A DNA stretch of 64,000 nt, taken from sequence record ON286972; one strand, 5' to 3'. A program made the position numbers and the translations under genes. Under the pieces are notes generated by a model. The model was not told where the DNA came from and searched no databases. It saw only the letters and a program-made list of their open reading frames with translations. Position 1 is the stretch's first letter. Every line of letters begins with the position of its first letter. Of this stretch, positions 1-64,000 are shown piece after piece. Origin of the DNA: Escherichia phage A4.

Positions 1-189
1 AAGAAATACTCTTCAGCAGTTCGTGCTCGTTCACAAGAAGAATATGAAACGTTCATTGAAAGTATTCATTATGAAACAATGACTCGTGTAGATGGAAGTA
101 CTTATGAAGTTCGCGTTACAGTACTGAAACCTGAAGTTAATCCTCTTGAGAATTTGAAACCAGTCTACTGCTGGGGAACCTCAAACTAA
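1..189 (+). CDS. 3' end of an upstream gene, 5'-truncated by the window edge
   Basis: Open frame from position 1 to TAA at 187-189, same strand as neighbours; contains two in-frame AGT-ACT/GTA-CTG motifs. Confidence 0.4.
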   Translation, partial: KKYSSAVRARSQEEYETFIESIHYETMTRVDGSTYEVRVTVLKPEVNPLENLKPVYCWGTSN

Positions 190-203
190 TACATAATAAA
201 AAA

Positions 204-229
204 GGTCGGGAATATTCTCGGCCTTTTTG
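204..229 (+). terminator. Rho-independent terminator
   Basis: Hairpin ggtcgggaa..ttctcggcc followed by T-run, directly after the stop at 189. Confidence 0.5.
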
Positions 230-242
230 TCTATGAGGCACT

Positions 243-1082
243 ATGAAATTAAATTTTATTATCAACTTTAATGTTAAAGAAACCGATCATTACGCATCAG
301 AAGATGACCGTGTTGCACCAGCTTCGTCTGAATACATCAGAAATGAAAATGTCCATATGCATGAAAATTATTTCGACTTTGGTAATTTTATTATCTACCG
401 TGGATTTAAGGATGTTGTATTCCGTTCCAGATATGAAGACTTTGAACATGCACTCATTGATGTACCGGATGAATTAGTATTCCAGTTCATGTTACTTGGT
501 ATTAAAGATTATGACTTTATAGTTTATAACCATTATACTAAGCGTATTATGATTGGTAATGATTCATATGATCTTACTTATTATTCCAGTACTGATGAAG
601 ATTTAGAAAATATTAAACGCCGTTCTGGTGGTATACGTAATTGTTCATCTTCAAACTCCAGTAGAATGAGTGAAAGGTTTTTTGATTTCAAAAATAGCAA
701 TAATAACGACTGTGAAGACGCGGACAATACTGAACATGTAATGTTTGAAATTGACCACAATAATGGATATAATGACTTCCTTAACGTTCTGAAGCCTTAT
801 ATCAATCATAAATTCGTCAAAGATGTAAATCTGGTGGCACGTGACTTACAGTACAGTGATCGTACTGGTGGTATGCCTGTACCAATGGATCGTGTATGTA
901 CGAACAATACAGTATTCAATGTCCCACGAGAAGATGTTGCATTTGTATTTCTGGCATTTTTGAATTCAGATGCACTATGGGACGATAATGAAAGACAATT
1001 TAGTTCAAGACATATTGAAATAATTCGTCAAAATACATTACTACTGTGGAAGAAATTTACTGAAAATACCCAGGACAAATAA
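243..1082 (+). CDS. Hypothetical protein (279 aa)
   Basis: Track ORF with ATG start; no recognisable motif. Confidence 0.6.
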   Translation: MKLNFIINFNVKETDHYASEDDRVAPASSEYIRNENVHMHENYFDFGNFIIYRGFKDVVFRSRYEDFEHALIDVPDELVFQFMLLGIKDYDFIVYNHYTKRIMIGNDSYDLTYYSSTDEDLENIKRRSGGIRNCSSSNSSRMSERFFDFKNSNNNDCEDADNTEHVMFEIDHNNGYNDFLNVLKPYINHKFVKDVNLVARDLQYSDRTGGMPVPMDRVCTNNTVFNVPREDVAFVFLAFLNSDALWDDNERQFSSRHIEIIRQNTLLLWKKFTENTQDK

Positions 1083-1090
1083 ATTCTTGG

Positions 1091-1099
1091 TGATATAAT
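1091..1099 (+). promoter_or_regulatory. Extended -10 element TGaTATAAT (candidate promoter for the downstream structured element)
   Basis: TGATATAAT about 85 nt upstream of the conserved block; no good -35. Confidence 0.35.
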
Positions 1100-1184
1100 G
1101 ATGAGTGGCAATATATCTTTGTCACTCTTTTTTTTTTAATCCTGAAAGGTTCCATATGGAAATGATTAAGAGCCTAATCCACTC

Positions 1185-1653
1185 GAAAATGTAGAGGGTA
1201 GATGAGTAGTCCTTTCAGTACGAACAGCAGATGAAACCCGTCAGATGTGGGCATATTATGAACCCCTCACGGCAATGCGGCTGTATAAAGAACTCCGATA
1301 AGCACACAGAGAGTTCCTAGATAGACATATAAGGATCGCACCTTACCAGATTTGCTAAGGGAGATTTCATTAGAAATTGCGGTCAACTATTTGTACAAGA
1401 TAGTTGCGTCCAAAATTTGGTGAAATCAAATACCAGTACTGTTCATATGGTACTCGTATTATGTGTCGGGATGTTTAAGACCGACGACCGTTGCTACAAG
1501 AACCGCGATAGAGAGAAACAGAGCAACCCGCTTTCGCCTCGTTAAGAGAATTCGTGATATGAAATATGTGAAGACCACCAGCGTCAAATTTTAATTCTTT
1601 CCCCCAGTGGGGGGATGAAATATGCTCTTCCAAACCTCGTCAATATTAATTAA
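1185..1653 (+). ncRNA. Candidate large structured non-coding RNA, copy 1 of 2
   Basis: No ORF of 60 aa or more; GC-enriched; conserved blocks shared with 61771-62334; hairpins with compensatory changes. Confidence 0.45.
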
Positions 1654-1776
1654 AACCATTTAGTACTATTAGAATTATTCAGAGCGTAGCGATGAATTAA
1701 TTCTACTGATGTTGATTGAGTGCTAACGAAATCAATATCGAGTACATTATTTGATGTTTCCTAAAAAGGAATAATA

Positions 1777-2319
1777 ATGCCTGTATTTTCAAAGAACAAA
1801 ACAACAGAGATCATTTATAAATCAAAAGAATTTGAAGTACTAGAAGAATTTGATAGAGATTCATTTGATGGATATAAAATAGTAAAAGAAAAAGGAACTA
1901 TCAATCATATTGTTGAGTACATGGGAGGTGTAGAACTAGCAAAAATCACTTGTAGACCTACAAAAAACCCAGTAATTTTTTCTGTTCGCTATGGACATTA
2001 CGGAGAAGAGCGATATAATTCTAATACAGTATCAAGGAAATTCCATGTTGTAGATGGGAAATTAGAAGGGGAATCCAGACAATATAGTGTTCTTGGACTT
2101 CCTTTGTCAGTGAAGTACTTCCATCAAGGACATGATGTTACTATTGAAATTATGGATTTTATTGGGTTCAATGGTACAGTAGATGACTTCAACTTCTATG
2201 TATTAGCAGAAGATGAAGCATTCAATATAATGATGAAGTACGGTTCTAGATTTAAATTTTTATATGAGTACAACCTGGACAGTAAACTGTTCGATAATAT
2301 CTTACAGAACTGTCTATAA
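1777..2319 (+). CDS. Hypothetical protein (180 aa)
   Basis: Track ORF, AAAGGA RBS-like sequence before ATG. Confidence 0.55.
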   Translation: MPVFSKNKTTEIIYKSKEFEVLEEFDRDSFDGYKIVKEKGTINHIVEYMGGVELAKITCRPTKNPVIFSVRYGHYGEERYNSNTVSRKFHVVDGKLEGESRQYSVLGLPLSVKYFHQGHDVTIEIMDFIGFNGTVDDFNFYVLAEDEAFNIMMKYGSRFKFLYEYNLDSKLFDNILQNCL

Positions 2320-2964: not shown

Positions 2965-3486
2965 ATGTCGAAGAAGGATGCTTCGAAAAAACATTCGGTA
3001 CACTTCAGTACTGGAAAAGATAACTGGACTACTCCAAAGGAATTCTTTGAAGATTTGGATGAAGTCTGGGGATTCACACTTGATGCAGCATGTGTTAAAG
3101 AAACTGCATTATGTGACAAGTTTTTTACACCGGAAGATGATAGTCTTTCACAGGATTGGGGAAACAATATCGTCTTTCTTAACCCACCATACAGCGACCT
3201 GAAACCTTGGCTATCTAAGGCAGTTGATGCTTATAATAATGGTGCAACAGTACTGATACTTGTTCCATCACGTACTGATACAATTGCATTTCAGGAATAT
3301 GCATCTAAGCTTTGTGACTGTATTTGTTTTATTAAAGGACGTTTAAAATTTGGCATCCCTGAAGAACCAGATAAAAAGACTGATAGTGCTCCATTCCCTA
3401 GCTGTTTAATAGTACTGGATAAGTACTTAACACCAGCTAAAATCAACTATCTTAAATCTCTCGGTCAGGTGATGAAGAATATATGA
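2965..3486 (+). CDS. Phage Dam-like DNA N6-adenine methyltransferase
   Basis: WTTP..F..LDEVWGFTLDAAC, FLNPPYS, PSRTDT and RLKF motifs typical of the phage N6A-methyltransferase family. Confidence 0.85.
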   Translation: MSKKDASKKHSVHFSTGKDNWTTPKEFFEDLDEVWGFTLDAACVKETALCDKFFTPEDDSLSQDWGNNIVFLNPPYSDLKPWLSKAVDAYNNGATVLILVPSRTDTIAFQEYASKLCDCICFIKGRLKFGIPEEPDKKTDSAPFPSCLIVLDKYLTPAKINYLKSLGQVMKNI

Positions 3487-6586: not shown

Positions 6587-6779
6587 GTGTCCATATTGTA
6601 ACAGTACTCAATTAGCTCGTTTCCGCTTAGATTCAGACTGGGCCACTGGTGCTGGGGATTTCTTTCCCATCAATGATGATGCGGAATACACTGAAGAACA
6701 GCACAAAGATTTTGATAAATCATGGCGACCAGACATTGAGTGCATTTATTGCCTTAATTGTGAGCGTGTACATGACTAA
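6579..6779 (+). CDS. Small zinc-ribbon protein
   Basis: CPYC ... CIYCLNC cysteine pairs; TTG start, so start uncertain. Confidence 0.4.
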   Translation: MNKCPYCNSTQLARFRLDSDWATGAGDFFPINDDAEYTEEQHKDFDKSWRPDIECIYCLNCERVHD

Positions 6780-7035
6780 AGCTGAACTAATAGTTCATAC
6801 ATATAAAATGATAGCCAGTACTGAGTTATCCTGTGGTGCAGATAATCCAGTACTGGACTATTTTATAGAATCTTTGAAAGAACATTATATTGGTAAATCA
6901 CTGATTCTTAATAATATTAATTTCACTGTAAAGGATGTAGCACCTGGAAAAAACGTACTAATAGTATGTGTTACTTCATCTGATAACCCAGTATACCCAA
7001 TAACAATAATTTTTGAGGTATTAGGTGATTTATGA
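6772..7035 (+). CDS. Small paralog family protein (array 1, member 6)
   Basis: Track ORF 6649-7035 trimmed to ATG 6772 (ATGACTAA overlap); contains HYIGKSLIL motif. Confidence 0.5.
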   Translation: MTKAELIVHTYKMIASTELSCGADNPVLDYFIESLKEHYIGKSLILNNINFTVKDVAPGKNVLIVCVTSSDNPVYPITIIFEVLGDL

Positions 7036-10445: not shown

Positions 10446-10709
10446 ATGAATATCCAAGATAGATTGCAATTGTTGCACACACTTGAAGAAGCTGCTTTTG
10501 AACTTGTTAATAAAATTGCACAAGAACTCCCAAAAGGAACCAACGTTCGTGTTCGTGAAATGGATTATTTAACGGGAGAAATTGAAGAAAAAGTTCTAAC
10601 AGTGATCAAAGTAACATACTATGAATCAGAGTTATCAATTCAATGTAAGTCAGATAATGGTTACGTTTCCTACTATGGCACAGATGTAGATATAGAGGTA
10701 ATTAGATGA
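10446..10709 (+). CDS. Hypothetical protein
   Basis: Track ORF 10401-10709 trimmed to ATG 10446 just after the upstream stop. Confidence 0.45.
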   Translation: MNIQDRLQLLHTLEEAAFELVNKIAQELPKGTNVRVREMDYLTGEIEEKVLTVIKVTYYESELSIQCKSDNGYVSYYGTDVDIEVIR

Positions 10710-11851
10710 GTAATTTACGAGAAATATACAATGATTTAATGGAACTATGTGAATCTAATGATGCATTTTTCTATATAGATCACACAAGCCCTGGTGGTGG
10801 TTTATACCGTGTATTCACCTATCGTCTGGCATCTTATACCGATTTCACAAATAAAAATGCACTAGAAACTCGTGGTTCTATGTGGGAAATCGATTCCAAC
10901 GGAATTATGATTCGTTGTGCAGCACGTACAATGAAAAAGTTCTTCAATGCATATGAAAACCCGTACACAATGTTCAGTACTGATACGACATGTGATGATA
11001 TTGCAGTTGTAATGCCTAAACTTGATGGTTCTATCATCAGCACATTCCGTGATAACGATGGTGAAATCCGTTGCAAATCACACACTTCGTTATCTTCTGA
11101 CCATGCTATTAACAGTACTCGACTTTTGAACGAGAACCAAAATCTCTATCAATACATTGATGAAGCAGACCGTTTGGGCTATACTGTGAATCTGGAATAC
11201 ACAAGCCCAGAGTATCGAATTGTGTTACCATATCAGGTGGAACAGTTATTTGTTCTTAACGTTCGTCATCGTATTAGTGGTGAGTTGTTATGCGGTAAAG
11301 CACTACGTGATAAGTTTCCATGCCTTTCACAGTACAGTACTAATATGACAGGTAATGACATTCATCATACATTCCCGATTATGCCTACATTTAAAGAGTC
11401 AATCGATAAAGTACGTTCTATGATTGACATTGAAGGTTTTGTGTGTATAATGAAAGATGGTACAATGTGCAAAATCAAAACTGACTGGTATTGCTCTTTG
11501 CATTTAACAAAAGATTCCATTCTTATTGATTCCCATTTATATGAAGCTGTACTGACTGGTGCAAGTGATGACTTAAAACAATTGTTCAGTACTGATACAT
11601 ATGCAATGGATAAGATATTAAGAATGGAACAATTGGTATTTTCGTGCTATAATGCTTTACAAGATGAGGTAGAAAGCTTCGTCCATGCATACAAGCACTT
11701 AGAGCGAAAGGAATTCGCTCAAAAGGTTCAGCAAGATTTACCTAATGTATTGAACCGACAAGGCTTGGCCTTTGCGTTGTACAATGGCAAAAGTGTCGAT
11801 TATAAAGAGACTTTACTAAAGTACTACAAAGATGTACTAAAGGATTTTTAG
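10706..11851 (+). CDS. rnlA: RNA ligase 1 (T4 Rnl1-like)
   Basis: Extended similarity to recalled T4 RnlA: FFY.D..S..G...R.F.Y..AS, RG.MFE, KFFN..ENP, GYV..MKDG...KIK.DWY.SLH.TK, GASDDLK. Confidence 0.9.
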   Translation: MSNLREIYNDLMELCESNDAFFYIDHTSPGGGLYRVFTYRLASYTDFTNKNALETRGSMWEIDSNGIMIRCAARTMKKFFNAYENPYTMFSTDTTCDDIAVVMPKLDGSIISTFRDNDGEIRCKSHTSLSSDHAINSTRLLNENQNLYQYIDEADRLGYTVNLEYTSPEYRIVLPYQVEQLFVLNVRHRISGELLCGKALRDKFPCLSQYSTNMTGNDIHHTFPIMPTFKESIDKVRSMIDIEGFVCIMKDGTMCKIKTDWYCSLHLTKDSILIDSHLYEAVLTGASDDLKQLFSTDTYAMDKILRMEQLVFSCYNALQDEVESFVHAYKHLERKEFAQKVQQDLPNVLNRQGLAFALYNGKSVDYKETLLKYYKDVLKDF

Positions 11852-11880
11852 TACTAACTAGCCCAGCACAAGGAGAAGTG

Positions 11881-12135
11881 ATGGCTAAACCTAAGTATAA
11901 AAATGATGGTTCCCTTTCTCCTACTGAGTTCAGGAAAATACAACAAGAAATCGATGATTTACAGCACAAACGCTCAATGAAAGGTGTGAAGATTAGTAAG
12001 AAGCGAATCGAGAATACTTTTGGGTGTAGTAGTACTGAATATAAGAAGAAAAGGAAACCAAAGGATGTTAAGCCGAGAATACATGATGTAACTCGCTATA
12101 CATCGAAACGTGAAAATAAATTCGATCCACTATAA
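11881..12135 (+). CDS. Small basic protein (K/R-rich)
   Basis: ATG 5 nt after AAGGAG; track start GTG 11878 is adjacent. Confidence 0.5.
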   Translation: MAKPKYKNDGSLSPTEFRKIQQEIDDLQHKRSMKGVKISKKRIENTFGCSSTEYKKKRKPKDVKPRIHDVTRYTSKRENKFDPL

Positions 12136-12144
12136 GGAGTTCAT

Positions 12145-12381
12145 ATGAAAGTTGAAGTTCAGCATAGTATTGTTCAGGATATGTCAGTGGTTAAGTTTCT
12201 TTCTCTGAAAGATTACTTCAGATGTATCAAGTTCCTTGAAGAATCTCAATTACAGTGGACCCCCTTAAAGTACAGTTCATCCAATGACACTGCTAGTATT
12301 CGTTGTGATGAAGCTGTACTTGTAAAAATCTCCAAGCGATTTGGAGTTGGGAAATACAATGAAAAACAATCATTCAAGTGA
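12145..12381 (+). CDS. Hypothetical protein (78 aa)
   Basis: AAGGAG RBS, ATG start. Confidence 0.5.
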   Translation: MKVEVQHSIVQDMSVVKFLSLKDYFRCIKFLEESQLQWTPLKYSSSNDTASIRCDEAVLVKISKRFGVGKYNEKQSFK

Positions 12382-12613
12382 TTTGTTATATTATAAAGTA
12401 CTATCAGAATGTTTGACGGATATATTGTACCGTGAGAGTAATACTCTACGTGCAAAATATATTAACAAAAGAGTACGTTATAAATCATCTTATGATGGGA
12501 TGAATGTTTATGGTAAAATCACTAATGTATATGTAGATGATGATTTTACATTGAATATCATTGTCGATAATTGTATTGATATCTCAATTGATGATATTAT
12601 TGAGGTAATCTAA
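12359..12613 (+). CDS. Hypothetical protein
   Basis: Track ORF 12341-12613 trimmed to ATG 12359. Confidence 0.45.
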   Translation: MKNNHSSDLLYYKVLSECLTDILYRESNTLRAKYINKRVRYKSSYDGMNVYGKITNVYVDDDFTLNIIVDNCIDISIDDIIEVI

Positions 12614-12924
12614 TGAATAAAGCATTAAAAGAACTTAATAATTTAATGAATGCAGAAATTGAATTAACTAATACTATTTCTGAAATTGTTCATGATATGA
12701 TTACACAATACAAGAAATCACTCATTGGTAAGAAAGTTGAATGCTGGGATTACAACACTAAAACATGGTTCGAAACTATCATTAGTGATGTTAATGTTAA
12801 ATTTCATGTAGTTACTCATCACATTTCTGACGAGTGCTATGTAGAAGTAACTATAGGACACAACACGAGACATGAACGTTTTTCGTGGTACAATCTAAAG
12901 AATGTGAAATTTATTGAGGATTAA
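12613..12924 (+). CDS. Small paralog family-like protein
   Basis: Contains SLIGKKVECWDY motif shared with arrays 1 and 2. Confidence 0.5.
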   Translation: MNKALKELNNLMNAEIELTNTISEIVHDMITQYKKSLIGKKVECWDYNTKTWFETIISDVNVKFHVVTHHISDECYVEVTIGHNTRHERFSWYNLKNVKFIED

Positions 12925-13857
12925 ATGCCAACTATTACACTAACAGTTGGATTGCCAGGATGTGGTAAAACCACGTGGGCAGTGCAAGAAATTAAAAAAG
13001 CAAAGTCCAAGACTATCAACATCAATCGTGATGATATTCGAGAGTCTATGGCTGGGTCACATGATGCTTATAAATTCACTGATGCGAACGAGAAGTACGT
13101 AACTAATCAACAGTTCAGTGCAGCAAACGCAGCAGCAGCGAATGGATGGAACATTATTGTGTCCGATACGAACCTGAAACAAGGTTTTCGTGATGAATGG
13201 AAACGTTGGGCTAAAGATAATGGCTACGACTACAAAGAAAAGAACTTCTACGAAGATTTTGTACCGAATGAAGACCGTGGTGCAGATGTTCATGAATTCT
13301 TTAAGATTAAGGAATTCGTGAAGCTCTGTAAGAAACGCAACCTTCTTCGTGTGCGTTCAGTACAAGATGAAATCATTGACACTATGGCAGATACGTACTA
13401 TTATAGTAAGGCGATGCACATTGGTTACTATGGTAATGCACGTGAAGCTGCTATCATTGTTGATATCGACGGTACTCTTGCTCATAAGTGGGGACGTAAC
13501 CCGTTTGATGAAAGTACTGTCCTTCAGGATACACCAGATGAAGAAGTAATTCTGTCTGTCATTGCTGAGGCTGTTTTCCATAAGCGTAAGGTAATCGTCA
13601 TGAGTGGGCGTACTGAAGGGTGTCGTGCTGATACTGAACAGTGGCTTAAGAATTGGGGCATTCCCTACGATGTATTGTTAATGCGAGCTATCGATGATAA
13701 ACGTCCTGATGATGTTGTCAAATTCGAGTTGTATATGAATAACGTTGTTAATCATTACGATGTTAAGAAAGTATTTGATGACAGGGCCGCCGTTGTATTC
13801 ATGTGGCGTAAGCTACTAGGCTTGAAAGTATTTCAGGTGGAACCTGGACTATTTTGA
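12925..13857 (+). CDS. pseT: Polynucleotide 5'-kinase/3'-phosphatase (T4 Pnk-like)
   Basis: N-terminal P-loop GLPGCGKTTWA, NINRDD, and HAD-type phosphatase DIDGTLA with DDR..VV.MW; matches recalled T4 PseT. Confidence 0.9.
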   Translation: MPTITLTVGLPGCGKTTWAVQEIKKAKSKTININRDDIRESMAGSHDAYKFTDANEKYVTNQQFSAANAAAANGWNIIVSDTNLKQGFRDEWKRWAKDNGYDYKEKNFYEDFVPNEDRGADVHEFFKIKEFVKLCKKRNLLRVRSVQDEIIDTMADTYYYSKAMHIGYYGNAREAAIIVDIDGTLAHKWGRNPFDESTVLQDTPDEEVILSVIAEAVFHKRKVIVMSGRTEGCRADTEQWLKNWGIPYDVLLMRAIDDKRPDDVVKFELYMNNVVNHYDVKKVFDDRAAVVFMWRKLLGLKVFQVEPGLF

Positions 13858-13867
13858 TTATTACAAA

Positions 13868-13894
13868 GGGATCAGTACTGATCCCTTTTCTTTT
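13868..13894 (+). terminator. Rho-independent terminator
   Basis: Perfect hairpin gggatCAGTACTGatccc followed by TTTTCTTTT. Confidence 0.6.
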
Positions 13895-21067: not shown

Positions 21068-21076
21068 GGGAATATA

Positions 21077-22495: not shown

Positions 22496-22514
22496 ACATT
22501 TATTGGAGGTAATT

Positions 22515-23306: not shown

Positions 23307-23315
23307 GGGATTACT

Positions 23316-48897: not shown

Positions 48898-49488
48898 ATG
48901 GCTTATAAATTTAGATCTGATGTGGAAGCGTATGCTTCCGTTAAATCACAAGGAAAAAATACTGGGACCACGATAACTGATCGTTCTGGTAATGTGTATC
49001 AAGCTGATGCTAATGGGAATGTTGATGTACCACTCATGAGTACAGATGATGTGAATTACATTACCAGTTCCTTTCCGTTATCACAATTTGGTTCACTTTA
49101 CAGTACTGAACCATTGGGTATTTCTGCTGCTGGTTTCAATTTAACTTTCAGTAAAGAATTACCATTGTTCATGGCGGGAGCGGTTTATACCCTCCCTGCT
49201 AAAACAATAACGGACCCAGGAGTTACTGGAACTAATATTGAAACACATTATGTATATGTTATATTAGATGTTGGGGTAGCTGACTACCTCATTTCTAAAA
49301 CTCAACGCCCTGAAAGTAGTGTTAATATGTACATAGGACAACTGACAGTTTTCCCAGATGGCATTACAGGGGTCAGTATAAATAAAGTGTCAAGATTTGA
49401 CGACTTCAGAGTAAGTGCTACAAAAATTGGTTCAGCTATCCCTATCAGTTCTGGTACACCAGATGTGAATAGTGGGACAGAATGGTAA
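48898..49488 (+). CDS. Short protein carrying the C-terminal module of the large late paralogs
   Basis: 196 aa; C-terminus aligns with the last ~100 aa of both flanking large proteins and ends in W. Confidence 0.55.
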   Translation: MAYKFRSDVEAYASVKSQGKNTGTTITDRSGNVYQADANGNVDVPLMSTDDVNYITSSFPLSQFGSLYSTEPLGISAAGFNLTFSKELPLFMAGAVYTLPAKTITDPGVTGTNIETHYVYVILDVGVADYLISKTQRPESSVNMYIGQLTVFPDGITGVSINKVSRFDDFRVSATKIGSAIPISSGTPDVNSGTEW

Positions 49489-49498
49489 AGGAATATAT

Positions 49499-52240
49499 AT
49501 GGCTTCGAGACGAATTATAGGAAACGCAGAAATACTAGGGAATTTGAAAATTAATGGAAAGTATGCATTACGTTCCTTTAATGGATTCCCTGCTGATTCT
49601 GCTGGTAATATCACTTACCAATATTATGACAAAGCGGAAGTGGATCAAATGTTTGATATGCTTCCTGTTTCAAGGGTAGGTGATCAAGATTACCTACCGA
49701 TGAGTATTAACGGTACATTTGAAGGTGCTTCTTCCTTTTCATTTGCAAAAATAATGCAACCTTGTATCATTGAAAATGATGGTACTGGTGTAATTTTACG
49801 TGCAGGTACAAATGGAAGTTCTTATGGTTTCTATTATGCTTATATAAAAAATATAAGAGATATAGAAACATTAACTCAAGATAATATAATTACAACCAAC
49901 ACGATGTATAGACCTTCTGTGCTACCAAGTACTGATTACATTTATGAATTTTATGGGTCAAATGCATATGAATTACTATTTTGGGAATCAACTGATAGAG
50001 CATCATACTACCTTACATTAACAAATGAAACATTAAATGAATCAGCACACAAACATTGCAGAATTCCAAAAACAGCAATAACAAATAAACCAATCTATGC
50101 ACACATCGTAAATGATTCAGTTTATATATGGTGTATGGATTCAAGTGTATTGAGTAGTGTTCGCGGGTGTGCATTTATCATATACACAGTACCTTTAACT
50201 GCATTTAATACTGGTTCAGTTTCGACAGTAACACAGATTAGTGGTTATTCAGGAAGAACTATAAGAAATGTAACATACACTGCATCTAATAATATTCGTG
50301 TTTATGATAGTTATTCAGCGTTGGGTTCAGGTGGTGATGCACTAATAGCATATGATAATGGTGTTTCCAGAATAGATTATTGGGAAAATAACGCATTTAA
50401 TACCCAAGCAGTTCTTAGTCCAGATGGTACAAAAATAAGAGTAGCGATATATCCAGGGTTTCGTGTCTTAACCGCAACAAAAACATCTGGTGTATATGCA
50501 CTTGGTATCAGCTTTACATATGATATCAGTACTAAAACAATGACACTTGACGGTTCTGAACGTGGTCCAATCAGAGTATCAGCTAATGCATCAACTGGTA
50601 GTATAACAGTGAGTAACCCGTTTTCAATCAATATGGAAAACTTTACAGGGTTTTATGATGGTGCACTTGGTAACTATGGTTCAATCTGTCAAACTTCTGA
50701 TGGTTTTGTTTTCACTACCAAAGCAAGATGGTCATCCATGCCGACCTATGCAGTACAAACATACAAAGTTTCTGGTACACCTTATGATAGTTGGGTTGCT
50801 AAAACACGTACTGGTAGTAATTTAAAACGCGTAGAAGTAATGCCCGTTTATGGTTCACCTGTAGGTGAAAACTTAATAGGTGTTCGTTTCGTTGATAAAC
50901 GTAAGATACTTGTTGCATGTTCTGGTACTGCTGATGGAATTTCTTATGGTTATGATAGTACAGTTTTTACTGAAATAGGTGAGAATCCAACTTATAGTTA
51001 TAAAAACTTGGAACAAAATACCACAATGAATGGTTTTGCACCATCAGGTAATAGACACTATTTAAGTACTGATTACAAATATGCAGGTATGGTAACATTG
51101 GTTGATGCCAATGGAAATGTCAGCACTTATGGATCTTCTTTAATAGAAGGTATCGATAAACCAGCTTATGGAAAATTCGACCCTGTTACAATGGACTTTA
51201 ACAGTGATAGATATGAAATTTCAGGAACTACATTATCAGGTATAGGTTATAATGCCGTTGCTAAAGCTGGATTGACTGGAATAACTGAACATAAAACTGT
51301 TTTTTATTATGTACCTGATACTACATATTCTAAATCTATTGCAGTCACTTCTGCACTAAACGGTACTACCAACGTGTGTTATATTATTTTTTCCGAAATA
51401 TCATGTAGTGCACTGGGTACAAGTGGTACTATAATTTTACGTGGTATTAGTGTTGATACAGCAAGATATACATCAATCACGAATACATTCCAAATTTCAC
51501 CAAATGAAATGATCAAACGTTGGGCTGGTATGACTGTTGCTAAGTTTAGTGGTTTTAACTACTTAGGTGTGAACATTTTATATGGCATTGATACCCCAGG
51601 TTGGACTCGTTATCCTAACATGATTGCTAAAGTGAAAAATGGTATTATTTCAAGTCAACGATATATGGAAACAACTTATATTTCAAACGCACAATTTGAT
51701 ATAGGTACAATTCCAGGGATTGGGTTTGGATATTACCAAATGAACAAAAACGATTATCAAACTAAATCAGTTTTTGCTGTATGTGGTACTACTGAAGCAG
51801 ATATGGATAAACTAATATCTGGTAATGAAACGATATCACAGTACTTAGTTGTTGCTTCACAGGATGTGGCACAAGGGTTCAACGTGTACTTTTCACAAGA
51901 AGTACCAGTTTTCTTGGGTGGAAAGTTTGCAAAGATACCACCGACTATGATAGACTTATCTACCATAAGTACTACACCAGATAATTCAACATTCTACATA
52001 TATGCGGTTATGGATAGAGGTACATCTACAGCTTCGTATCAGATATCACTATATCAATTATCAGAAACTATGACATCAACCTACATTGGTAAGATAGTAA
52101 CTGATGCTAATGGTATTGCATCAATCGAGTCTGAAAAAGTGTCCAGATTCTTGCTATACCGCCCAAGTACCTACAATCGTGGTTCTGCTATCCCAGCTAG
52201 TTCTGGGTTACCATCACAATCTGGTACTCGTTGGAGTTAA
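49499..52240 (+). CDS. Large late (structural, fibre-like candidate) protein, paralog B
   Basis: Track ORF 49472-52240 trimmed to ATG 49499; shares MLP.SR.G.Q.YLP, LRAGTNGS and DVAQGF..YF motifs with paralog A. Confidence 0.6.
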   Translation: MASRRIIGNAEILGNLKINGKYALRSFNGFPADSAGNITYQYYDKAEVDQMFDMLPVSRVGDQDYLPMSINGTFEGASSFSFAKIMQPCIIENDGTGVILRAGTNGSSYGFYYAYIKNIRDIETLTQDNIITTNTMYRPSVLPSTDYIYEFYGSNAYELLFWESTDRASYYLTLTNETLNESAHKHCRIPKTAITNKPIYAHIVNDSVYIWCMDSSVLSSVRGCAFIIYTVPLTAFNTGSVSTVTQISGYSGRTIRNVTYTASNNIRVYDSYSALGSGGDALIAYDNGVSRIDYWENNAFNTQAVLSPDGTKIRVAIYPGFRVLTATKTSGVYALGISFTYDISTKTMTLDGSERGPIRVSANASTGSITVSNPFSINMENFTGFYDGALGNYGSICQTSDGFVFTTKARWSSMPTYAVQTYKVSGTPYDSWVAKTRTGSNLKRVEVMPVYGSPVGENLIGVRFVDKRKILVACSGTADGISYGYDSTVFTEIGENPTYSYKNLEQNTTMNGFAPSGNRHYLSTDYKYAGMVTLVDANGNVSTYGSSLIEGIDKPAYGKFDPVTMDFNSDRYEISGTTLSGIGYNAVAKAGLTGITEHKTVFYYVPDTTYSKSIAVTSALNGTTNVCYIIFSEISCSALGTSGTIILRGISVDTARYTSITNTFQISPNEMIKRWAGMTVAKFSGFNYLGVNILYGIDTPGWTRYPNMIAKVKNGIISSQRYMETTYISNAQFDIGTIPGIGFGYYQMNKNDYQTKSVFAVCGTTEADMDKLISGNETISQYLVVASQDVAQGFNVYFSQEVPVFLGGKFAKIPPTMIDLSTISTTPDNSTFYIYAVMDRGTSTASYQISLYQLSETMTSTYIGKIVTDANGIASIESEKVSRFLLYRPSTYNRGSAIPASSGLPSQSGTRWS

Positions 52241-53885: not shown

Positions 53886-54287
53886 ATGGATCTTGATGAT
53901 GTGTATAGCACCATAAGACAGATGGATTCGTATAAAAAAGTATATAGTGGTTACAAGAGTGATAAACAATTTTATGGAATCGGGGAGTATGATGTAATAT
54001 CATTCGAATACGATGATACTGGTGAAAGTTCCATTAATATTGTTTGCCCTCGTGACCGTGAAAATAACTTCATGTACGTTGAAATCAATAATGATGGTTT
54101 ACACTTTACTAAAATATTAAATGGTGGCAAACAATCTATTTCTCTGGATTTATCCGAAGAAGAAAAGTTCTTTCAAGAAGATACTATAATCAATCTTGGT
54201 TTTAGTTTATCAGAATACAAAGTTCTTCATAAAGATTTCATGAAGTACTATAATGGGTTTCTTAAGGAGCTAACATTACATCTATGA
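53886..54287 (+). CDS. Hypothetical protein (133 aa)
   Basis: Track ORF. Confidence 0.5.
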   Translation: MDLDDVYSTIRQMDSYKKVYSGYKSDKQFYGIGEYDVISFEYDDTGESSINIVCPRDRENNFMYVEINNDGLHFTKILNGGKQSISLDLSEEEKFFQEDTIINLGFSLSEYKVLHKDFMKYYNGFLKELTLHL

Positions 54288-55525
54288 ATAATAACAAATT
54301 TCTTGAACAAACAATTGTGAAGCACTTAGCAGGTTCACAAGCGTATGGAACCAGTACACCTGAAAGTGATACGGATTATCGTGGTATTTTTCTTGCTAAC
54401 AAAGAATTCATCCTTACGCCTTTTTATAATGTAAAGGAAGTTTCTGATTCAAGAGAAGAAGATACTAAATTCTATGAACTAAACCAGTACTTAAGACTAT
54501 ACACAGAGGCTAACCCAAATATCCTTGAATCACTATGGGTCGATCCTGAACACATCGTAGAAAGTACTGAGATCTATGATTATCTACGCACTTTCAATCA
54601 ACAATTGCTTAGCTCAAAGATTGCACACTCTTATACTGGTTATGCCTATAATCAGGTTAAGCGTATGTCTAATCACCACGGGTGGATGGATAAAGAGCGT
54701 ATTGCTGAAAAACGTCTAAATGAAATCTTAGAAGATTTTCCAGTAGATGAAACTTTAGCATGGATGTATGAAAACTTCCCACACTATTTGGTAGAACGTT
54801 TAGATACTTCTAAACTACATCCATTTAATGCTAAGAAAATAGATTTTGAAAAATACATGCGTGATACTTCATTGCAGTTAGTTTCAACTAATCCGTTGAA
54901 ACAGTATCATTTTGTACGTTTAGTACATAATTACAGTACTGATAAAGTACTAGACCGTGATTTCAACTTATTGGATTATAACAATGGGTACGAATTAATT
55001 CATTACGGTGAAAATATCTTTGGTGTTATTATCAATCCTAATGAAAGTACAGTTAACGCGGATGGTTCTTTACGTTATTTCAACAAAGAACGCAGTACTG
55101 AAGAATTGAAAGTACGACCTGAACTCATTGTTAAATTCAATGAAAAAGAATACAGTGAGAACAGTGAGAACCGTAAAAGTTATCACAAATGGAAAGAGAA
55201 TCGTAATGCTAAACGTGCAATTCTTGAATCCAAACACGGCTACGATTGCAAACATGCTATGCATACGATCAGACTTTTGAATACAGCCGAAGAAGCATTA
55301 CAAAGCGGTATTATTCTGGTGAAACGTCCTGATGCTGATATGCTAATGGATATTCGCAACGGTAAGTGGAAATATGAAGAAGTCATGGAGTACTTTAACG
55401 ATAAGGTAAAATATATTCGTGAAGTACTTTATCCTAAGTCAGTACTCCCGAAGAAACCAGATATTGCATTAGCTGCGAAAGTACTGTTAGATATTCGCGA
55501 AATGCAGTGGTACGGTAAGAAATAG
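54284..55525 (+). CDS. Pol-beta-superfamily nucleotidyltransferase-domain protein
   Basis: N-terminal LAGSQAYGTSTPESDTDYRGIF (GS...D.D nucleotidyltransferase signature). Confidence 0.5.
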   Translation: MNNNKFLEQTIVKHLAGSQAYGTSTPESDTDYRGIFLANKEFILTPFYNVKEVSDSREEDTKFYELNQYLRLYTEANPNILESLWVDPEHIVESTEIYDYLRTFNQQLLSSKIAHSYTGYAYNQVKRMSNHHGWMDKERIAEKRLNEILEDFPVDETLAWMYENFPHYLVERLDTSKLHPFNAKKIDFEKYMRDTSLQLVSTNPLKQYHFVRLVHNYSTDKVLDRDFNLLDYNNGYELIHYGENIFGVIINPNESTVNADGSLRYFNKERSTEELKVRPELIVKFNEKEYSENSENRKSYHKWKENRNAKRAILESKHGYDCKHAMHTIRLLNTAEEALQSGIILVKRPDADMLMDIRNGKWKYEEVMEYFNDKVKYIREVLYPKSVLPKKPDIALAAKVLLDIREMQWYGKK

Positions 55526-55609: not shown

Positions 55610-56239
55610 ATGGCTATTTCCTTTTACACCACAATGGAAGTTACTGGTGTTGTTAAATTCTCGAAAGCTGAATTTAAAAAACCAATATTAACATTTGATA
55701 CATCGTCTTTTAATATTATCAGAACACACGAAATTTCTGGTGCAGATAATCATTTAAGTAATTCAGTGATTACAACACTAGGAACAGATAGCAACCAATC
55801 GTTACAGATTGCTGCGTGGGCTGGGATGACAGAGACTAATAACGGTGTTAAAATACAAGCACGCACAACAAATGACACAAACAGTACTGAATGGGTTACA
55901 TTATATGATAGCTCCAACAGTACTGTGACAGTATTACCACAAGCTGATAGTTACGATATAGATACCAGTACTGGTAATAAAGTTTTTAATTTAACTCTAA
56001 ACAAACCAAACACTACAATTAATATCCTTCCTAATGCTAAAACTCAAGTATATGATTGCACTGTTATCATAGAACAAGGCACAGGTTCAAATCTTGTAAG
56101 CTGGAGTTCTAATGTGAAATGGTCATTCAATCGTCAAGTTCTTCTTTCATATGAACAATCCCAAAAAGATATAATTTCCCTAGAAACCTATGATGGTGGT
56201 ATTACATGGTACGGTGCTCTTATTCGAGCAGGGGTATAA
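55610..56239 (+). CDS. Hypothetical protein (209 aa), Ser/Thr/Asn-rich
   Basis: AAGGATGG RBS. Confidence 0.5.
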   Translation: MAISFYTTMEVTGVVKFSKAEFKKPILTFDTSSFNIIRTHEISGADNHLSNSVITTLGTDSNQSLQIAAWAGMTETNNGVKIQARTTNDTNSTEWVTLYDSSNSTVTVLPQADSYDIDTSTGNKVFNLTLNKPNTTINILPNAKTQVYDCTVIIEQGTGSNLVSWSSNVKWSFNRQVLLSYEQSQKDIISLETYDGGITWYGALIRAGV

Positions 56240-56240
56240 A

Positions 56241-59024
56241 ATGACAAAATATAACATAGATAACGTTATACAATTACTTTATGGTCATCATAGATTTTTA
56301 GAAAGAAATACAGGTGATACAGTAGATCCAACAAAACAGCATTACGTAATAAACGATCAAGGTGTATTAGCAAATAACCGTCATTTTATTAATTTCAGTG
56401 CAATGGAAGGTCAACCAAATGGTGACGGGACAACTGAGGGTCAAAGTCTTTTGATCATTGGTTATATCTATGCTTATCTTGCAACTAATGATGAAATGTT
56501 TTTGGATAAAGCTAAGTATTATTGGGACGCATATCACAAATATTTTTATGCTAATAGACAGTTTCCAGATCCACCACGTCCATTACAATGTAACTGGATT
56601 GTGAATGCTAAAGAACCAATACTCGCCAACTGGCCTTTGTCAGATGATGATTGGCCTACTCACGGTGGATTCAAAGGCGTAGAATTTAATTTCATAGATG
56701 GTCAATGTCGTATTCCACATGATGAGCCGTATTATGGACAATTCCTTGATAAAGTTACTTTTGCATTCAAAGGTGCACTTGCATGGAATCAGATTAACGC
56801 GTCAGTACAGGCAATATTACCAGATGGTAGTACTGACTGGGATAACCCTGGTGAACAATATGATGTTGATTGGGTAATTGATTACTTAGGACGTAAAGTA
56901 GATTATAATGGGGATATTATCAGTACTGGACACTATGAGTCAGAAAAAGGAACAGTACAGGTAAAAGACAGAACATTAAATGGTGTTTATAAATTAAACT
57001 TCGCTAATAGACAACCTGTTGAATTTGGTGGTACGTACATCGCACGTAATCAGATGCAACACAACCGTCCATTACATGTTCCTATTACTCTTGACTTTGC
57101 TGATAACGCATCTGATGCTGAATTATGGTTCAGTGATGCTTCTTACTTGTTATATAAAATAACAAAGGAAAGAAAACATTATCTTGGATGGAAATGTTCT
57201 TTACTTACTTGTTATGCATATGGTGACATTGATGCATTTGATAAATTCTTCAGACAAAGTACTAAAGTATCTTCGCCATTTACTGATGGTATTTCATATG
57301 ATTATTTTTATCCAAGTGATGCGATTGCTACATATTCCCGCAACGTTGATGGTTATATCAGAATACGTCAGGAACAAAGTGCACAAAGTACTCTTGAACA
57401 GCAAGCAATATGGTTCAGACTAAATTCTGATTCGAAATTGGTTGTTGATTATGGTGGAATATGTGATGATGGTTCTCCATTAACATTTAAGCCAGTACTT
57501 GACTTATCAAAAACAAAAAGTGATAATGATGCTATAAGATACCGTTGTGGTTTACCACTGAGTACCAGTACTGAAATTAAACACTCTGAAACTCCATTAA
57601 GTGTTTTTGTCCGTGAGAAGAAAGATGATGGTAGCTCTTATATTATGGCTGACAGCCGTTCAGTTGTTGATTATGGGGGAGCCGTATATAAAATGGAATA
57701 TAGTACTGATATTCTTGGTTCCAGAGTTGATACTATATGCGATATCAGTACTGGTGAAGACGGTGGTATAGTTGTAGGATTTTGGTTATTAGATTCAGAA
57801 AAAGCACCTATTAATTCTTTTACATATCGTTCATATGAAGATGATTTTAATATCAGAATCGAAGATGATAATGGATGGCGTTGGTGGTGGATGATTCCTG
57901 CAACACATGGTGAATGGACCACAATAGAATTGAAACCAGAGGATTTACATCTTTCTGGATATCAGCCAAATCACAGCGATGATCCTGACCCAGAAGCCCC
58001 AGTATATAGTGAATTGGAAGATTTCACTCTATTACCCGATACAACACCAATCAATGGAACTGCTAAAATCCAATGGTATTGTATAAATGATATTCCACCA
58101 CTATATACATCCGAAAATGGCGATGACTATACAATGACATTCTCTATTACTGTTTCTGGAACAGCAGCATATTCGGCGTATTTGGGGGATTGTGTAATTA
58201 AAGATTATGAATTAAATTCGTTACGTTACACTCCTGGTACTATTCCATTTTCAAATATTACTGATCCATATGCAAATCAGTACGGTGGGTGGCGTGGACT
58301 ACCATATCCTGGATACCAATACCCAGTAATTTACTGCTTTAAAGACGAACCAGTAGACCATACAAGAATGGGTAATATGTTGGATTTTATGAAAGATTCA
58401 CAAGAATGGTTTACAAACCAATTCGGTACAGTTGGTCCTTGTGCACAGGCATATGTATGGAACCGCTGGGACAACCTCAAATATGGTGAACCTGATACGT
58501 TTACAATGTTACACTGGGGTGATGAAGCATGGAGTGGATATGAACCACGTGCATTCTTTGGTGCGGCTCGTTGCTGGCAAGAATTAGCAGAGCGTGGTGA
58601 AGAACCACCAGTTGAATTGGTTGAGTTCTGTGAGAACTGGATTAACTTTTTAATTCAATTCCAGGATGAAAATGAAGGTCGTTCACCAACAATCTTTAAT
58701 AAAGATGGAACAGTTGAAGGCCCAGCATGGGATTTCACAGGACATATGTGTGGATTGTGGTTGGCAGGTGGTAGTGCATGTGGCTTAGCTGGGTGCAAGA
58801 TTGAACGCTTACCAGAAATGGTTGACAGATTGGTTGATGAATTGCAAAATAACTATGTAATAACAAAACCAGGTTCACCGATGAACGGCTCATGGAGTCC
58901 AGCAGTTCGAGAAGATTCAGACAATGGGATGTTCTTTGGATTTTGGGCTGGTGAAATCATGCGTGGTCTTGGTTTGTACTCAATGTACAGACTGAACTCA
59001 CACAATCGTTATAGTGAATTATAA
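56241..59024 (+). CDS. Large hypothetical protein (927 aa)
   Basis: Track ORF 56190-59024 trimmed to ATG 56241 immediately after the upstream stop. Confidence 0.55.
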   Translation: MTKYNIDNVIQLLYGHHRFLERNTGDTVDPTKQHYVINDQGVLANNRHFINFSAMEGQPNGDGTTEGQSLLIIGYIYAYLATNDEMFLDKAKYYWDAYHKYFYANRQFPDPPRPLQCNWIVNAKEPILANWPLSDDDWPTHGGFKGVEFNFIDGQCRIPHDEPYYGQFLDKVTFAFKGALAWNQINASVQAILPDGSTDWDNPGEQYDVDWVIDYLGRKVDYNGDIISTGHYESEKGTVQVKDRTLNGVYKLNFANRQPVEFGGTYIARNQMQHNRPLHVPITLDFADNASDAELWFSDASYLLYKITKERKHYLGWKCSLLTCYAYGDIDAFDKFFRQSTKVSSPFTDGISYDYFYPSDAIATYSRNVDGYIRIRQEQSAQSTLEQQAIWFRLNSDSKLVVDYGGICDDGSPLTFKPVLDLSKTKSDNDAIRYRCGLPLSTSTEIKHSETPLSVFVREKKDDGSSYIMADSRSVVDYGGAVYKMEYSTDILGSRVDTICDISTGEDGGIVVGFWLLDSEKAPINSFTYRSYEDDFNIRIEDDNGWRWWWMIPATHGEWTTIELKPEDLHLSGYQPNHSDDPDPEAPVYSELEDFTLLPDTTPINGTAKIQWYCINDIPPLYTSENGDDYTMTFSITVSGTAAYSAYLGDCVIKDYELNSLRYTPGTIPFSNITDPYANQYGGWRGLPYPGYQYPVIYCFKDEPVDHTRMGNMLDFMKDSQEWFTNQFGTVGPCAQAYVWNRWDNLKYGEPDTFTMLHWGDEAWSGYEPRAFFGAARCWQELAERGEEPPVELVEFCENWINFLIQFQDENEGRSPTIFNKDGTVEGPAWDFTGHMCGLWLAGGSACGLAGCKIERLPEMVDRLVDELQNNYVITKPGSPMNGSWSPAVREDSDNGMFFGFWAGEIMRGLGLYSMYRLNSHNRYSEL

Positions 59025-62334: not shown

Positions 62335-62397
62335 TATGAATGAGTGAGTTATCGTAGATAACGAAACGAATTCTTGAGTTACGAGAGAACGAAGTGA

Positions 62398-62814
62398 ATG
62401 AGTAACGCAACGAATATTAAAAATTCATCTGATTTAACCAAAGAATTGTTTAAAAAGTTTTTTGAGTATCAAATCAATGAAGAGCATGGAATTAAACAGA
62501 ATTACATAAGTACAATAAAAACCAATAATATCCGAACTGAAATCTATGATAGTGTAATCGAATTTATTAATGCATTGAGTACTGAAAGACCTATAGTAGT
62601 TTTGTTTTTTAAACGAGATTATCCAGTACAAGTCAACAGGAATGTTCATTTCATTACAGAAAATGATTTAAGTACTTACACAACGAGTTCTCTTAGGAAT
62701 TGTATACTGATAGTATGTGATGACTCCGAGTATTATAGTAAAGTTGTATGGGATAGAAGACGTAATTCAGTAATAAGAGATATGAATCCCGAATTTACAT
62801 TTCTGATCAAATAA
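62398..62814 (+). CDS. Hypothetical protein (138 aa)
   Basis: Track ORF. Confidence 0.5.
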   Translation: MSNATNIKNSSDLTKELFKKFFEYQINEEHGIKQNYISTIKTNNIRTEIYDSVIEFINALSTERPIVVLFFKRDYPVQVNRNVHFITENDLSTYTTSSLRNCILIVCDDSEYYSKVVWDRRRNSVIRDMNPEFTFLIK

Positions 62815-62825
62815 ATAGACATAGA

Positions 62826-63287
62826 ATGACTCCCTGGAGAGATTTTATGGAAAATATTAACGACTTGCGACATGTTATGGACTTCATTGGCTGTACTGAA
62901 GAAGACAGTGCTTATGATGAAGTACTATTGACATTTATTGAAAACAGCATTATACTACCAGCAATTGCACATAGCTGGCATTTACAAAGTAAACACTACA
63001 CAAAACATCTACAATTAGATGAGTTGTATAAAGAGTTACCAGAATATGTCGATGCGTTCATTGAAGGCATTATGAACACTCGTGGTGCTTTACAAATTGG
63101 TACTGGACACAGTTATAAGTTCACACCAATTGAACAGTGTATTCCGATTCTTGAAGAATACTGTGAACAATGTAAGTACGTTCATGCTATGCTTGAAGAA
63201 GCTGAAGACTATGGCAGTACTAATACCCTTGAAGATATAATGAGTTTCATTGAGGGTACTTTATATAAACTTAAGTATCTTGAATAA
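62826..63287 (+). CDS. Hypothetical acidic protein (153 aa)
   Basis: Track ORF. Confidence 0.5.
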   Translation: MTPWRDFMENINDLRHVMDFIGCTEEDSAYDEVLLTFIENSIILPAIAHSWHLQSKHYTKHLQLDELYKELPEYVDAFIEGIMNTRGALQIGTGHSYKFTPIEQCIPILEEYCEQCKYVHAMLEEAEDYGSTNTLEDIMSFIEGTLYKLKYLE

Positions 63288-63296
63288 TATAAACAT

Positions 63297-63326
63297 GGAG
63301 AGTCATTTTGACTCTCCTTTTCTTTT
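63297..63326 (+). terminator. Rho-independent terminator
   Basis: Hairpin ggagagtc-atttt-gactctcc followed by TTTTCTTTT. Confidence 0.6.
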
Positions 63327-63341
63327 ACTATAAAAAAGAGG

Positions 63342-63701
63342 TTGACTATGAGTGATTATCGCATAACAGCAGGTCTTATTGCACGTTTAGTAGATCCAGT
63401 ACCACGAGAAGATTGGGAATCTATCACTGACCGTCTGTTTCAAGCAGATGTAAACCTTCATATTTCTTATGATGGTATGCTAGTATATAGTACTGATAAA
63501 GATGTTACAATGTACGAGTTTGATATTCTCATTGGAGAACCAAGTGACAGTACAGAATTCAGTACTAAATGTGAACGAGAAGGTCTTTGCATTGATACTT
63601 CTTCTATTAAGCCTTATGTATCTTTATGGTATGATGGTGCTGATAGTCCAATGTCAACTACTGAAATCGGTGATTTCCTGAATGCAAATCAAAAAAATTA
63701 A
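63342..63701 (+). CDS. Hypothetical protein (119 aa)
   Basis: GAGG RBS. Confidence 0.5.
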   Translation: MTMSDYRITAGLIARLVDPVPREDWESITDRLFQADVNLHISYDGMLVYSTDKDVTMYEFDILIGEPSDSTEFSTKCEREGLCIDTSSIKPYVSLWYDGADSPMSTTEIGDFLNANQKN

Positions 63702-63750
63702 ATTCCATCAGCATTGCTCAATTCATGAATGTGATGACTGTGGTATGTGT

Positions 63751-64000
63751 ATGAGTGATATTTTTACAGTTTCCTGTAAAGGATTCAAATTCACACATGG
63801 TGAACCTGCGTATTGTTATGGTACAGAAGAAGGTGATATTGAAGTAGTACTGAAAGAGTTGTTCCAGTACTTGCAAAGTGCAGGGCATGATGTTACAATG
63901 CCCACATATTATGAAGATGAATATGACACTCATGTGGAAGAAAACATTTACTATAATCAATTCGTTTATGGTAATGGTTTTATCACATACCTTCACGAGA
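63751..64000 (+). CDS. 5' part of a gene running off the window end
   Basis: ATG 63751 (MSDIFTVSCKGFKF...) open to the window edge; absent from the track because it has no stop. Confidence 0.35.
   Translation, partial: MSDIFTVSCKGFKFTHGEPAYCYGTEEGDIEVVLKELFQYLQSAGHDVTMPTYYEDEYDTHVEENIYYNQFVYGNGFITYLHE

Follow-up and report, generated by a model that had tools for sequence, protein, structure and literature searches.

Among the described systems, those closest to the one reported here are the DNA uptake sequences (DUS) of Neisseria and the uptake signal sequences (USS) of the Pasteurellaceae. These are short words that are over-represented genome-wide and in every reading frame at a cost to the encoded proteins; their positions turn over while the density is kept, and inverted pairs of them are reused as transcription terminators. 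The same properties are described here for the palindromic hexamer AGTACT in 64,000 nt of Escherichia phage A4 (sequence record ON286972), a stretch that is referred to, at its full length, as the window. The role of DUS and USS is that of a "self" label read by a protein, which for AGTACT is only proposed. The uptake words also differ in being 9-12 nt long and non-palindromic, in belonging to competent bacteria and in having a known reader (ComP for DUS), whereas AGTACT is a phage palindrome of 6-8 bp.

Four further systems share part of this picture. Chi (GCTGGTGG) is likewise over-represented, allows a protein machine to tell DNAs apart and differs sharply in density between genomes, but it is asymmetric, orientation-dependent, replication-skewed and the host's own word; the window holds no copy of GCTGGTGG and one of its complement. 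Type II restriction-modification systems use the very same six-base palindrome, which is recognized by ScaI and Eco255I, with the symmetry expected of a dimeric enzyme. Such sites are normally avoided by phages, whereas AGTACT is enriched eight-fold, and among the genes of the window, about 18% of the genome, neither a nuclease of the ScaI family nor a cognate methyltransferase was recognized. The CCWGG sites of E. coli, raised through Dcm and Vsr, are another case of a short symmetric word increased genome-wide by a lineage-specific enzyme system. That effect is modest, however, and the T-containing neighbors (CTAG) are strongly depleted, while the neighbors of AGTACT are undepleted and its sites conserved. 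Finally, the binding sites of SlmA (SBS) share the central hexamer, the two-fold symmetry and the enterobacterial setting, but the outer bases they require (G1, T2 and a purine at 3) are absent or disfavored in the phages. The phenomenon thus appears to be DUS/USS- and Chi-like in kind, and what seems new is that the word is a restriction-type palindrome and that it is found in phages. Several features that characterize identity words were seen for AGTACT, namely an excess that persists under codon control, occurrence in all frames and in non-coding DNA, reuse in terminators and rarity in the host sample. No report of the excess was found in the full-text literature, including the papers on RaK2, CBB and Sharanji and a jumbo-phage overview; most subscription journals lay outside this search, so it is not proof of novelty. 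Literature matches to the extended form CAGTACTG were primer sequences only.

The original prediction, made by eye from the sequence alone, had put the number of AGTACT sites at about 150 or more, or one per 300-400 bp, with about 20 expected from base composition. Both estimates agree with exact counting. There are 178 copies across positions 1-64,000 (about 2.8 per kb), which corresponds to a mean of one per 360 bp and a median gap of 268, and 21.5 are expected from the composition of the window (A 34.1%, T 31.0%, G 19.3%, C 15.6%), an 8.3-fold excess. Markov models of increasing order predict 17.8 (order 1), 33.9 (order 2), 68 (order 3) and 143 (order 4, the maximal order) copies; the last value is high because the pentamers AGTAC and GTACT themselves belong to the excess. 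AGTACT is the highest-scoring of all 4096 hexamers, and the runner-up among palindromic hexamers reaches only 2.45-fold. Every one of the top octamers is an extension of AGTACT, and the form CAGTACTG alone occurs 58 times where 0.6-0.8 copies are expected.

Codon usage does not account for these numbers. When synonymous codons were permuted within each of the 104 called open reading frames (ORFs), 60.2 +/- 5.7 sites remained, which leaves a 3.0-fold excess (z 21), against a threshold of about two-fold set in the original prediction. Pooling the codons of all genes before shuffling gave 52.8 sites (3.4-fold). In an over-strict version, codon positions 1 and 2 and the base that follows the codon were fixed, so that most of the word was frozen and the exchanges AGY<->TCN and CTN<->TTR were barred; even then, 115 and 93 sites were obtained, corresponding to 1.55- and 1.9-fold excesses (z 11-14). 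The ordinary synonymous shuffle leaves 2.4-3.0-fold in the related phages 121Q, RaK2 and GAP32, while in PA5oct and T4 the count lies under the shuffled mean.

The word occurs in all three codon phases, as had been predicted, with 85 sites in phase 0 (AGT-ACT), 23 in phase 1, 51 in phase 2 and 19 outside the crude gene calls. Ser-Thr had been described as almost always written AGT-ACT. This pair is indeed dominant (85 of 141, or 60%, with 19 expected), although "almost always" overstates it; the mirror pair ACT-AGT is found once where nine are expected. Val-Leu is often written GTA-CTG, as noted before (39 of 149, although CTG makes up only 10% of Leu codons), and GTA-CTN accounts for 73 of the 149 (30 expected). 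The frame xAG-TAC-Txx is occupied at 22 of 48 possible places (3.9 expected). About half of the places permitted by the protein sequence therefore carry AGTACT (85/141, 51/149 and 22/48). The order of amino acids is skewed as well, with 141 Ser-Thr versus 67 Thr-Ser and 149 Val-Leu versus 99 Leu-Val dipeptides, and the observed-to-expected ratio (O/E) of Ser-Thr is 1.3-1.75 in six AGTACT-rich phages versus 0.77-1.04 in five controls. Selection on AGTACT has thus reshaped phage proteins. In strictly non-coding DNA of six phages, 27 sites are present where 4.5 are expected, a six-fold excess.

The bases on either side of the word follow a rule that does not depend on the reading frame. At phase 0 sites, C stands at position -1 in 50 cases (11 expected) and G at +1 in 48 (24 expected); at phase 2 sites the figures are 26 (9 expected) and 31 (7 expected), although position -1 is a third codon position in the former and a second codon position in the latter. 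Over the whole window, C occupies position -1 at 102 of the 178 sites and G is the scarcest base there. Once the flanks are symmetrized, information is confined to positions +/-1, where C is favored and G strongly disfavored. The refined word is accordingly HAGTACTD, with CAGTACTG as its best form.

Individual sites are also conserved beyond their surroundings. The window was aligned to the relatives WPEC3 and 121Q (about 79% identity), and same-phase hexamers no more than 30 nt away served as background. Intact sites numbered 62 of 92 aligned in WPEC3 (30 predicted by the background) and 66 of 102 in 121Q (32 predicted), so that AGTACT is conserved about twice as well as neighboring same-phase hexamers (z 8, binomial p ~1e-11). 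Sites found only in the window are balanced by those found only in the relative (30 versus 31 for WPEC3, 36 versus 37 for 121Q); the density of AGTACT is maintained while individual sites turn over. The WPEC3 record (PV611058.1, locus L001) contains long C and G homopolymer runs, with CCCCCC occurring 222 times in 47 kb, which are probably gap filler or an assembly artefact.

On these grounds, that is, occurrence in all phases and in non-coding DNA, symmetric flanks, conservation and the dipeptide bias, there is good support for the claim of the original prediction that selection acts at the level of the nucleic acid and not of the protein.

In a megablast search with positions 20000-28000 as an 8-kb query, the window matched the 121Q/PBECO4/WPEC3 group at about 78-87% identity. 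These are jumbo myoviruses of E. coli with genomes of about 350 kb (Asteriusvirus, RaK2-like phages), of which the window represents about 18%. Relatives share the trait. AGTACT is present 149 times per 50 kb in 121Q and 114 times in both RaK2 and GAP32, and 51 and 56 times per 25 kb in Serratia phage BF and Salmonella phage Munch. Copies are fewer than expected in PA5oct (3 per 50 kb), XacN1 (0), T4 (4, with 17 expected) and Atu_ph07 (1 in 25 kb). A single 50-kb sample of E. coli K-12 contains 3 sites, where 11.6 are expected by composition and 5-6 by Markov models of orders 2-3. The density in the window is therefore about 45-fold that of this host sample (2.8 versus 0.06 per kb, or about 139 versus 3 per 50 kb). 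Compositional bias of the host, named beforehand as the finding that would speak against a phage feature, is excluded, since both E. coli K-12 and T4 hold fewer copies than expected.

A scan of IMG/VR anchored on the tail sheath, in which loci of at least 8 kb were counted, delimits the trait further. All eight loci whose sheath shares at least 66% identity with that of GAP32 show an O/E of 5.3-7.5 and have AGTACT as their top palindrome, while about 50 more distant sheath relatives range from 0 to 2.35. Counted per locus, the O/E is 5.3-9 in WPEC3, 121Q, RaK2, GAP32, BF, Munch and four uncultured genomes. No comparably enriched palindrome of any kind was found in PA5oct, XacN1, Atu_ph07, T4 or the approximately 50 uncultured relatives. 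Among sheath relatives, the trait is thus that of one clade, the enterobacterial RaK2-like phages, whose known hosts all belong to the Enterobacterales.

The same genomes are otherwise poor in palindromes. From the window, 26 of the 64 palindromic hexamers are missing, including nearly all of those with at least four G or C (GGTACC, CGTACG, CAGCTG, CTGCAG and GGATCC among them), and the SpeI word ACTAGT is likewise avoided. The relatives 121Q, RaK2, GAP32, BF and Munch (loci L002-L004, L010 and L011) lack 24 to 31 of them. Restriction sites have been purged very strongly, a clear response to restriction pressure. Given that palindromes are otherwise purged, some thousand ScaI/Eco255I-type sites per genome must either pay or be protected. 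That phages which remove nearly all G+C-containing six-base palindromes keep about 1000 copies of AGTACT per genome, and bend their proteins to do so, implies a strong benefit.

A second lineage carries the same word. Searching IMG/VR for three copies of AGTACT within short gaps returned, besides tandem-repeat artefacts, contigs with a dispersed excess: L148 (54 sites versus 4.7 expected), L155 (33 versus 3.2) and L149 and L150, which belong to one contig (20 versus 1.9 and 68 versus 4.4, about 15-fold for L150). They form one family with 9-15-fold enrichment. Its genes include a phrog_15 terminase, a portal, a tape measure, a J-like fiber and a large serine integrase, and on this gene set the family is assigned to temperate, sipho-like phages. 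Megablast of these contigs gave no matches among cultured phages or complete E. coli genomes. A terminase search led to two prophages with a 6-8.5-fold excess, one in Leclercia sp. 29361 (NZ_CP049786.1, approximately 1,797-1,810 kb, locus L214; 88% identity, 38 sites versus 6.1 expected) and one in Escherichia sp. ESNIH1 (PQKR01000003.1, 28-50 kb, locus L215; 41% identity, 58 versus 6.8, spread across all 22 kb). The flank rule is that of the jumbo phages, with C at position -1 in a fraction of 0.47-0.56 and G in 0.07-0.10. The nearest cultured relative, E. coli phage DCP80 (PQ671644.1, locus L213), whose terminase is as distant as that of the ESNIH1 prophage, is unenriched. Its record looks chimeric, with T4-like genes attached to a sipho-like structural module and two occurrences of rIIA. 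Since the same word and the same flank rule recur in an unrelated lineage, the factor involved need not be specific to phage A4. On sequence grounds this recurrence points to one common reader, and the cause, shared as it is between unrelated lineages of phages of Enterobacteriaceae, is probably a shared molecular agent.

The explanation that is favored here, with slightly less than even confidence, is that selection keeps HAGTACTD dense as a word of duplex DNA for a two-fold-symmetric, dimeric binder or modifier. A palindrome of 6-8 bp is what dimeric enzymes or binders of DNA typically recognize. A single reader of duplex DNA is suggested by the palindrome and its symmetric flanks, the excess that is independent of coding, the conserved density and the identical fine specificity in two lineages. 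In this scheme, a dimeric protein would bind or modify HAGTACTD in double-stranded DNA; it could be the product of a mobile gene of the phages or a protein of their enterobacterial hosts. The word would then mark phage DNA as "self" for a genome-wide process, which may be protection, epigenetic marking or the loading of a factor for replication, transcription or packaging. A protein reader of duplex DNA, its phage or host origin and the use of the tag are inferences from the excess itself, its symmetry, its conservation and its recurrence, which are shown. Given the approximately 45-fold density contrast with the host sample, AGTACT could serve as such a tag. A bolder version, which is considered rather doubtful, would have AGTACT as a portable self-DNA tag, read by one reader and adopted independently by two unrelated phage lineages, in which case genomes with 3-5 sites per kb would gain, for example, nuclease protection or preferential loading of a factor for replication, transcription or packaging. 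Such a tag would be to phages what uptake sequences or Chi are to bacteria.

Were a self-recognition or protection tag confirmed, it would give phages that have neither modified bases nor a phage nucleus a new way of distinguishing self from host DNA. AGTACT density also marks membership of the lineage in metagenomes and flags recently acquired genes, and the excess is relevant to the cloning, recoding and engineering of therapeutic jumbo phages.

Several points weigh against a duplex-DNA reader. We know of no similar phage "self tag" that could serve as a precedent. Pfam scans of the 104 window ORFs, which come from a crude greedy choice of the longest non-overlapping frames, gave no ScaI-type nuclease (no RE_ScaI match) and no HTH or TetR protein; the only DNA-acting matches were a Dam-type methyltransferase and HNH domains, and neither the Pfam and PHROG scans nor the comparison of the two lineages yielded a reader candidate. 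The genes seen to be common to both lineages are limited to a tail protein, a lysozyme and a relative of a widespread homing endonuclease, and the methyltransferase has no homologue in the second-lineage pieces examined, by which it is rejected as a shared reader. The sites are scattered at random in the Poisson sense, and their positions give no hint of the process they would serve. In addition, a role in RNA is compatible with the sequence, since the palindrome is the same on either strand and almost all genes point one way.

The methyltransferase gene (2965-3486, + strand) encodes a Dam-type N6-adenine enzyme (PF05869, Pfam E 3.6e-32, NPPY motif) that is 92% identical to 121Q gp417 and is the sole DNA-modifying enzyme recognized in the window. 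Only by default might it be considered a candidate reader. Its gene carries four AGTACT sites in 522 bp, and homologues at 60% identity or more were found in 51 phage records, too few to judge its breadth. GATC is under-represented in the window despite the encoded enzyme (118 versus 204 expected), as it is in 121Q and WPEC3 (0.4-0.5 of expectation). For RaK2, only resistance of Dam, Dcm and CpG type is reported, with data not shown (PMC3622015). Three other candidates were rejected. An HNH/AP2-like relative of homing endonucleases (2334-2948), which has relatives in both rich lineages, has no AGTACT in its 615 bp and is inserted between homologues of 121Q gp416 and gp417, and the locus lacks the gene in 121Q and WPEC3; the family is found across many hosts, in over 1000 phage records. 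A small second-lineage protein of 76 aa, conserved and acidic, carries no known domain and lacks relatives among the RaK2-like sequences examined. The preferred sites of gyrase, as published, form a degenerate motif of about 130 bp without an AGTACT core.

Among the alternatives, the one that survives best, although it is considered unlikely, is a signal at the RNA level. According to this explanation, AGUACU would be selected in transcripts, where an RNA-binding protein or a nuclease would recognize it, or, in a variant, its self-complementary copies would pair, so that stems of 6-8 bp structure or stabilize polycistronic mRNAs and build terminators. Nearly all genes lie on one strand, and every site is therefore transcribed. 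Structured sites do exist. The hairpin that the original prediction had placed at 13868-13885 is real and forms a perfect 24-nt palindrome at 13865-13888 (+ strand), just 3' of the polynucleotide kinase gene, in which the word stands at the apex (AAAGGGATCAGTACTGATCCCTTT, followed by a T run); it folds into a stem of 10 bp closed by a GUAC loop, and a U run follows in the transcript (-13.5 kcal/mol, z -4.0). A second terminator-like element, at 40960-40983 (+ strand) between two genes, consists of AGTACTG...CAGTACT with a 9-bp stem followed by TTTTT (-11.2 kcal/mol). Within ORF 6649-7035, an inverted repeat at 6815-6856 (+ strand) with two CCAGTACTG(G) copies 32 nt apart folds as a strong hairpin (-25.4 kcal/mol, z -5.2). 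The word had also been said to occur in "both structured elements" of the window; of these, only this hairpin could tentatively be matched, and scans for Rfam families and tRNAs found none in the window. Within genes, the sites are evenly spread save for an approximately two-fold dip in the first and last tenth (9 and 10 sites versus about 17 per decile), which would fit an avoidance of structure near start sites.

These features concern few of the sites, however. A hairpin with a U run at a gene end is formed by two sites or site pairs (13865-13888 and 40960-40983), while the remaining 170-odd sites are intragenic; the terminators therefore reuse AGTACT and do not explain its excess. For all but a handful of the 178 sites, any partner is too far away for a stable hairpin. 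The spacing is Poisson-like (coefficient of variation 0.96, per-kb dispersion index 1.02, Kolmogorov-Smirnov test against an exponential p 0.85), with no regular spacing or helical phasing in the window and with only a slight excess of gaps below 40 nt (25 versus about 19 expected). A reader of single strands would need neither a palindrome nor symmetric flanks, yet C at -1 and G at +1 are equally favored. Moreover, the temperate prophage lineage has genes on both strands and AGTACT at equal density.

A neutral drive, in which biased mutation, repair or gene conversion would create AGTACT without benefit on the model of Dcm and Vsr, is held to be improbable. The balance of gains and losses resembles an equilibrium, and the inheritance of the trait by whole lineages is what would be expected of an enzyme-borne bias. 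Such a drive should deplete the sequences from which the word is made, but the transition neighbors are undepleted (AGTATT 44 versus 42.7 expected, 1.03; AATACT 35 versus 38.1, 0.92). The other one-base neighbors range from 0.2- to 2.4-fold without consistent loss, and those that contain GTAC are about two-fold enriched. Existing sites are lost at half the rate of the local background, which is purifying behavior, and the lost sites vary at 1-5 positions rather than by a single recurrent change.

Exploitation of SlmA has very little probability. Here thousands of phage sites would recruit or titrate this nucleoid-occlusion protein of the host and thereby alter cell division. Blocking of FtsZ is a known phage strategy, and all AGTACT-rich phages found infect Enterobacteriaceae. 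The 12-bp site GTGAGTACTCAC has AGTACT as its center (PMC3020112). The general form of the site is GTRAGY-RCTYAC, in which G1, T2, A4 and G5 are required together with a purine at 3 and a pyrimidine at 6 (PMC3020112). The phages do not follow this pattern, as no GTRAGYRCTYAC or full SBS match occurs in the window, 121Q, RaK2, GAP32, BF or Munch, position -1 is mostly C with G scarcest, and G at -3 is depleted. Variants tolerated by SlmA are not comparably enriched (AGCGCT 0 copies, AGTGCT 1.2-fold, AGCACT 1.9-fold), T4 is depleted in AGTACT although it shares the host, and the phage records are without a SlmA homologue, host contamination aside.

Least probable is a codon-pair preference by which translation would favor AGU-ACU and GUA-CUG, perhaps via phage Ser and Thr tRNAs, since, although AGT (32% of Ser codons) and ACT (43% of Thr codons) are each the commonest and RaK2 encodes Ser and Thr tRNAs (PMC3622015), the excess spans phases 0, 1 and 2 and non-coding DNA, the symmetric flank rule holds across phases, ACT-AGT is avoided (1 versus 9) and the amino-acid order itself is skewed (141 Ser-Thr versus 67 Thr-Ser).

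The exact listing of sites begins at positions 97, 120, 588, 1435, 1662, 1836, 2114 and 3007 and ends at 63846 and 63866. Per 4 kb, the number of copies ranges from 4 to 19 across the window. A tight cluster at 20620-20653, with copies at 20620, 20630 and 20648, lies inside the gene 19808-21067. Just after the prohead protease gene, at 24840-24860, a perfect TATAAT (GGGTATAATTCAGTACT) is followed within a few bases by an intergenic AGTACT; this may be a promoter with the word near its transcription start. A second motif, CTGGTG/CACCAG, was considered as a 12-bp palindrome and rejected; the full palindrome is absent, and the two words are ordinary codon strings that are common in E. coli too.

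The window carries about 100 genes, nearly all on the + strand. Their products include a DNA ligase, a prohead protease, NrdD/NrdG, a PhoH-like protein, an RNA-repair set, tail proteins and the Dam-type methyltransferase. The RNA-repair genes are found at 10706-13857 and 54284-55525 and comprise a T4 Rnl1-like RNA ligase, a polynucleotide kinase-phosphatase and a nucleotidyltransferase; presumably they counter anticodon nucleases of the host. Pfam matches to RlaP and cREC_REC domains fall somewhere within 27046-63996. The tail protein at 56190-59024 (phrog_2871) is 50% identical to the versions in the ESNIH1 prophage and contig L148. It is a mobile module that is also found, at 50-57% identity, in phages of about 145 kb from E. 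coli, Salmonella and Cronobacter.

Two neighboring paralogues of about 900 aa each (46203-48887 and 49472-52240), both assigned to phrog_3573 without a function, lie in a region where AGTACT is sparser than average, with 6-7 sites per 4 kb. On the minority - strand, the gene at 28245-30413 encodes a 722-aa protein of Ig-like (Big_2) repeats and contains only three AGTACT sites in 2.2 kb. Its counterpart in 121Q is far shorter (378 bp), and the low count would fit a recent acquisition or expansion of the gene.

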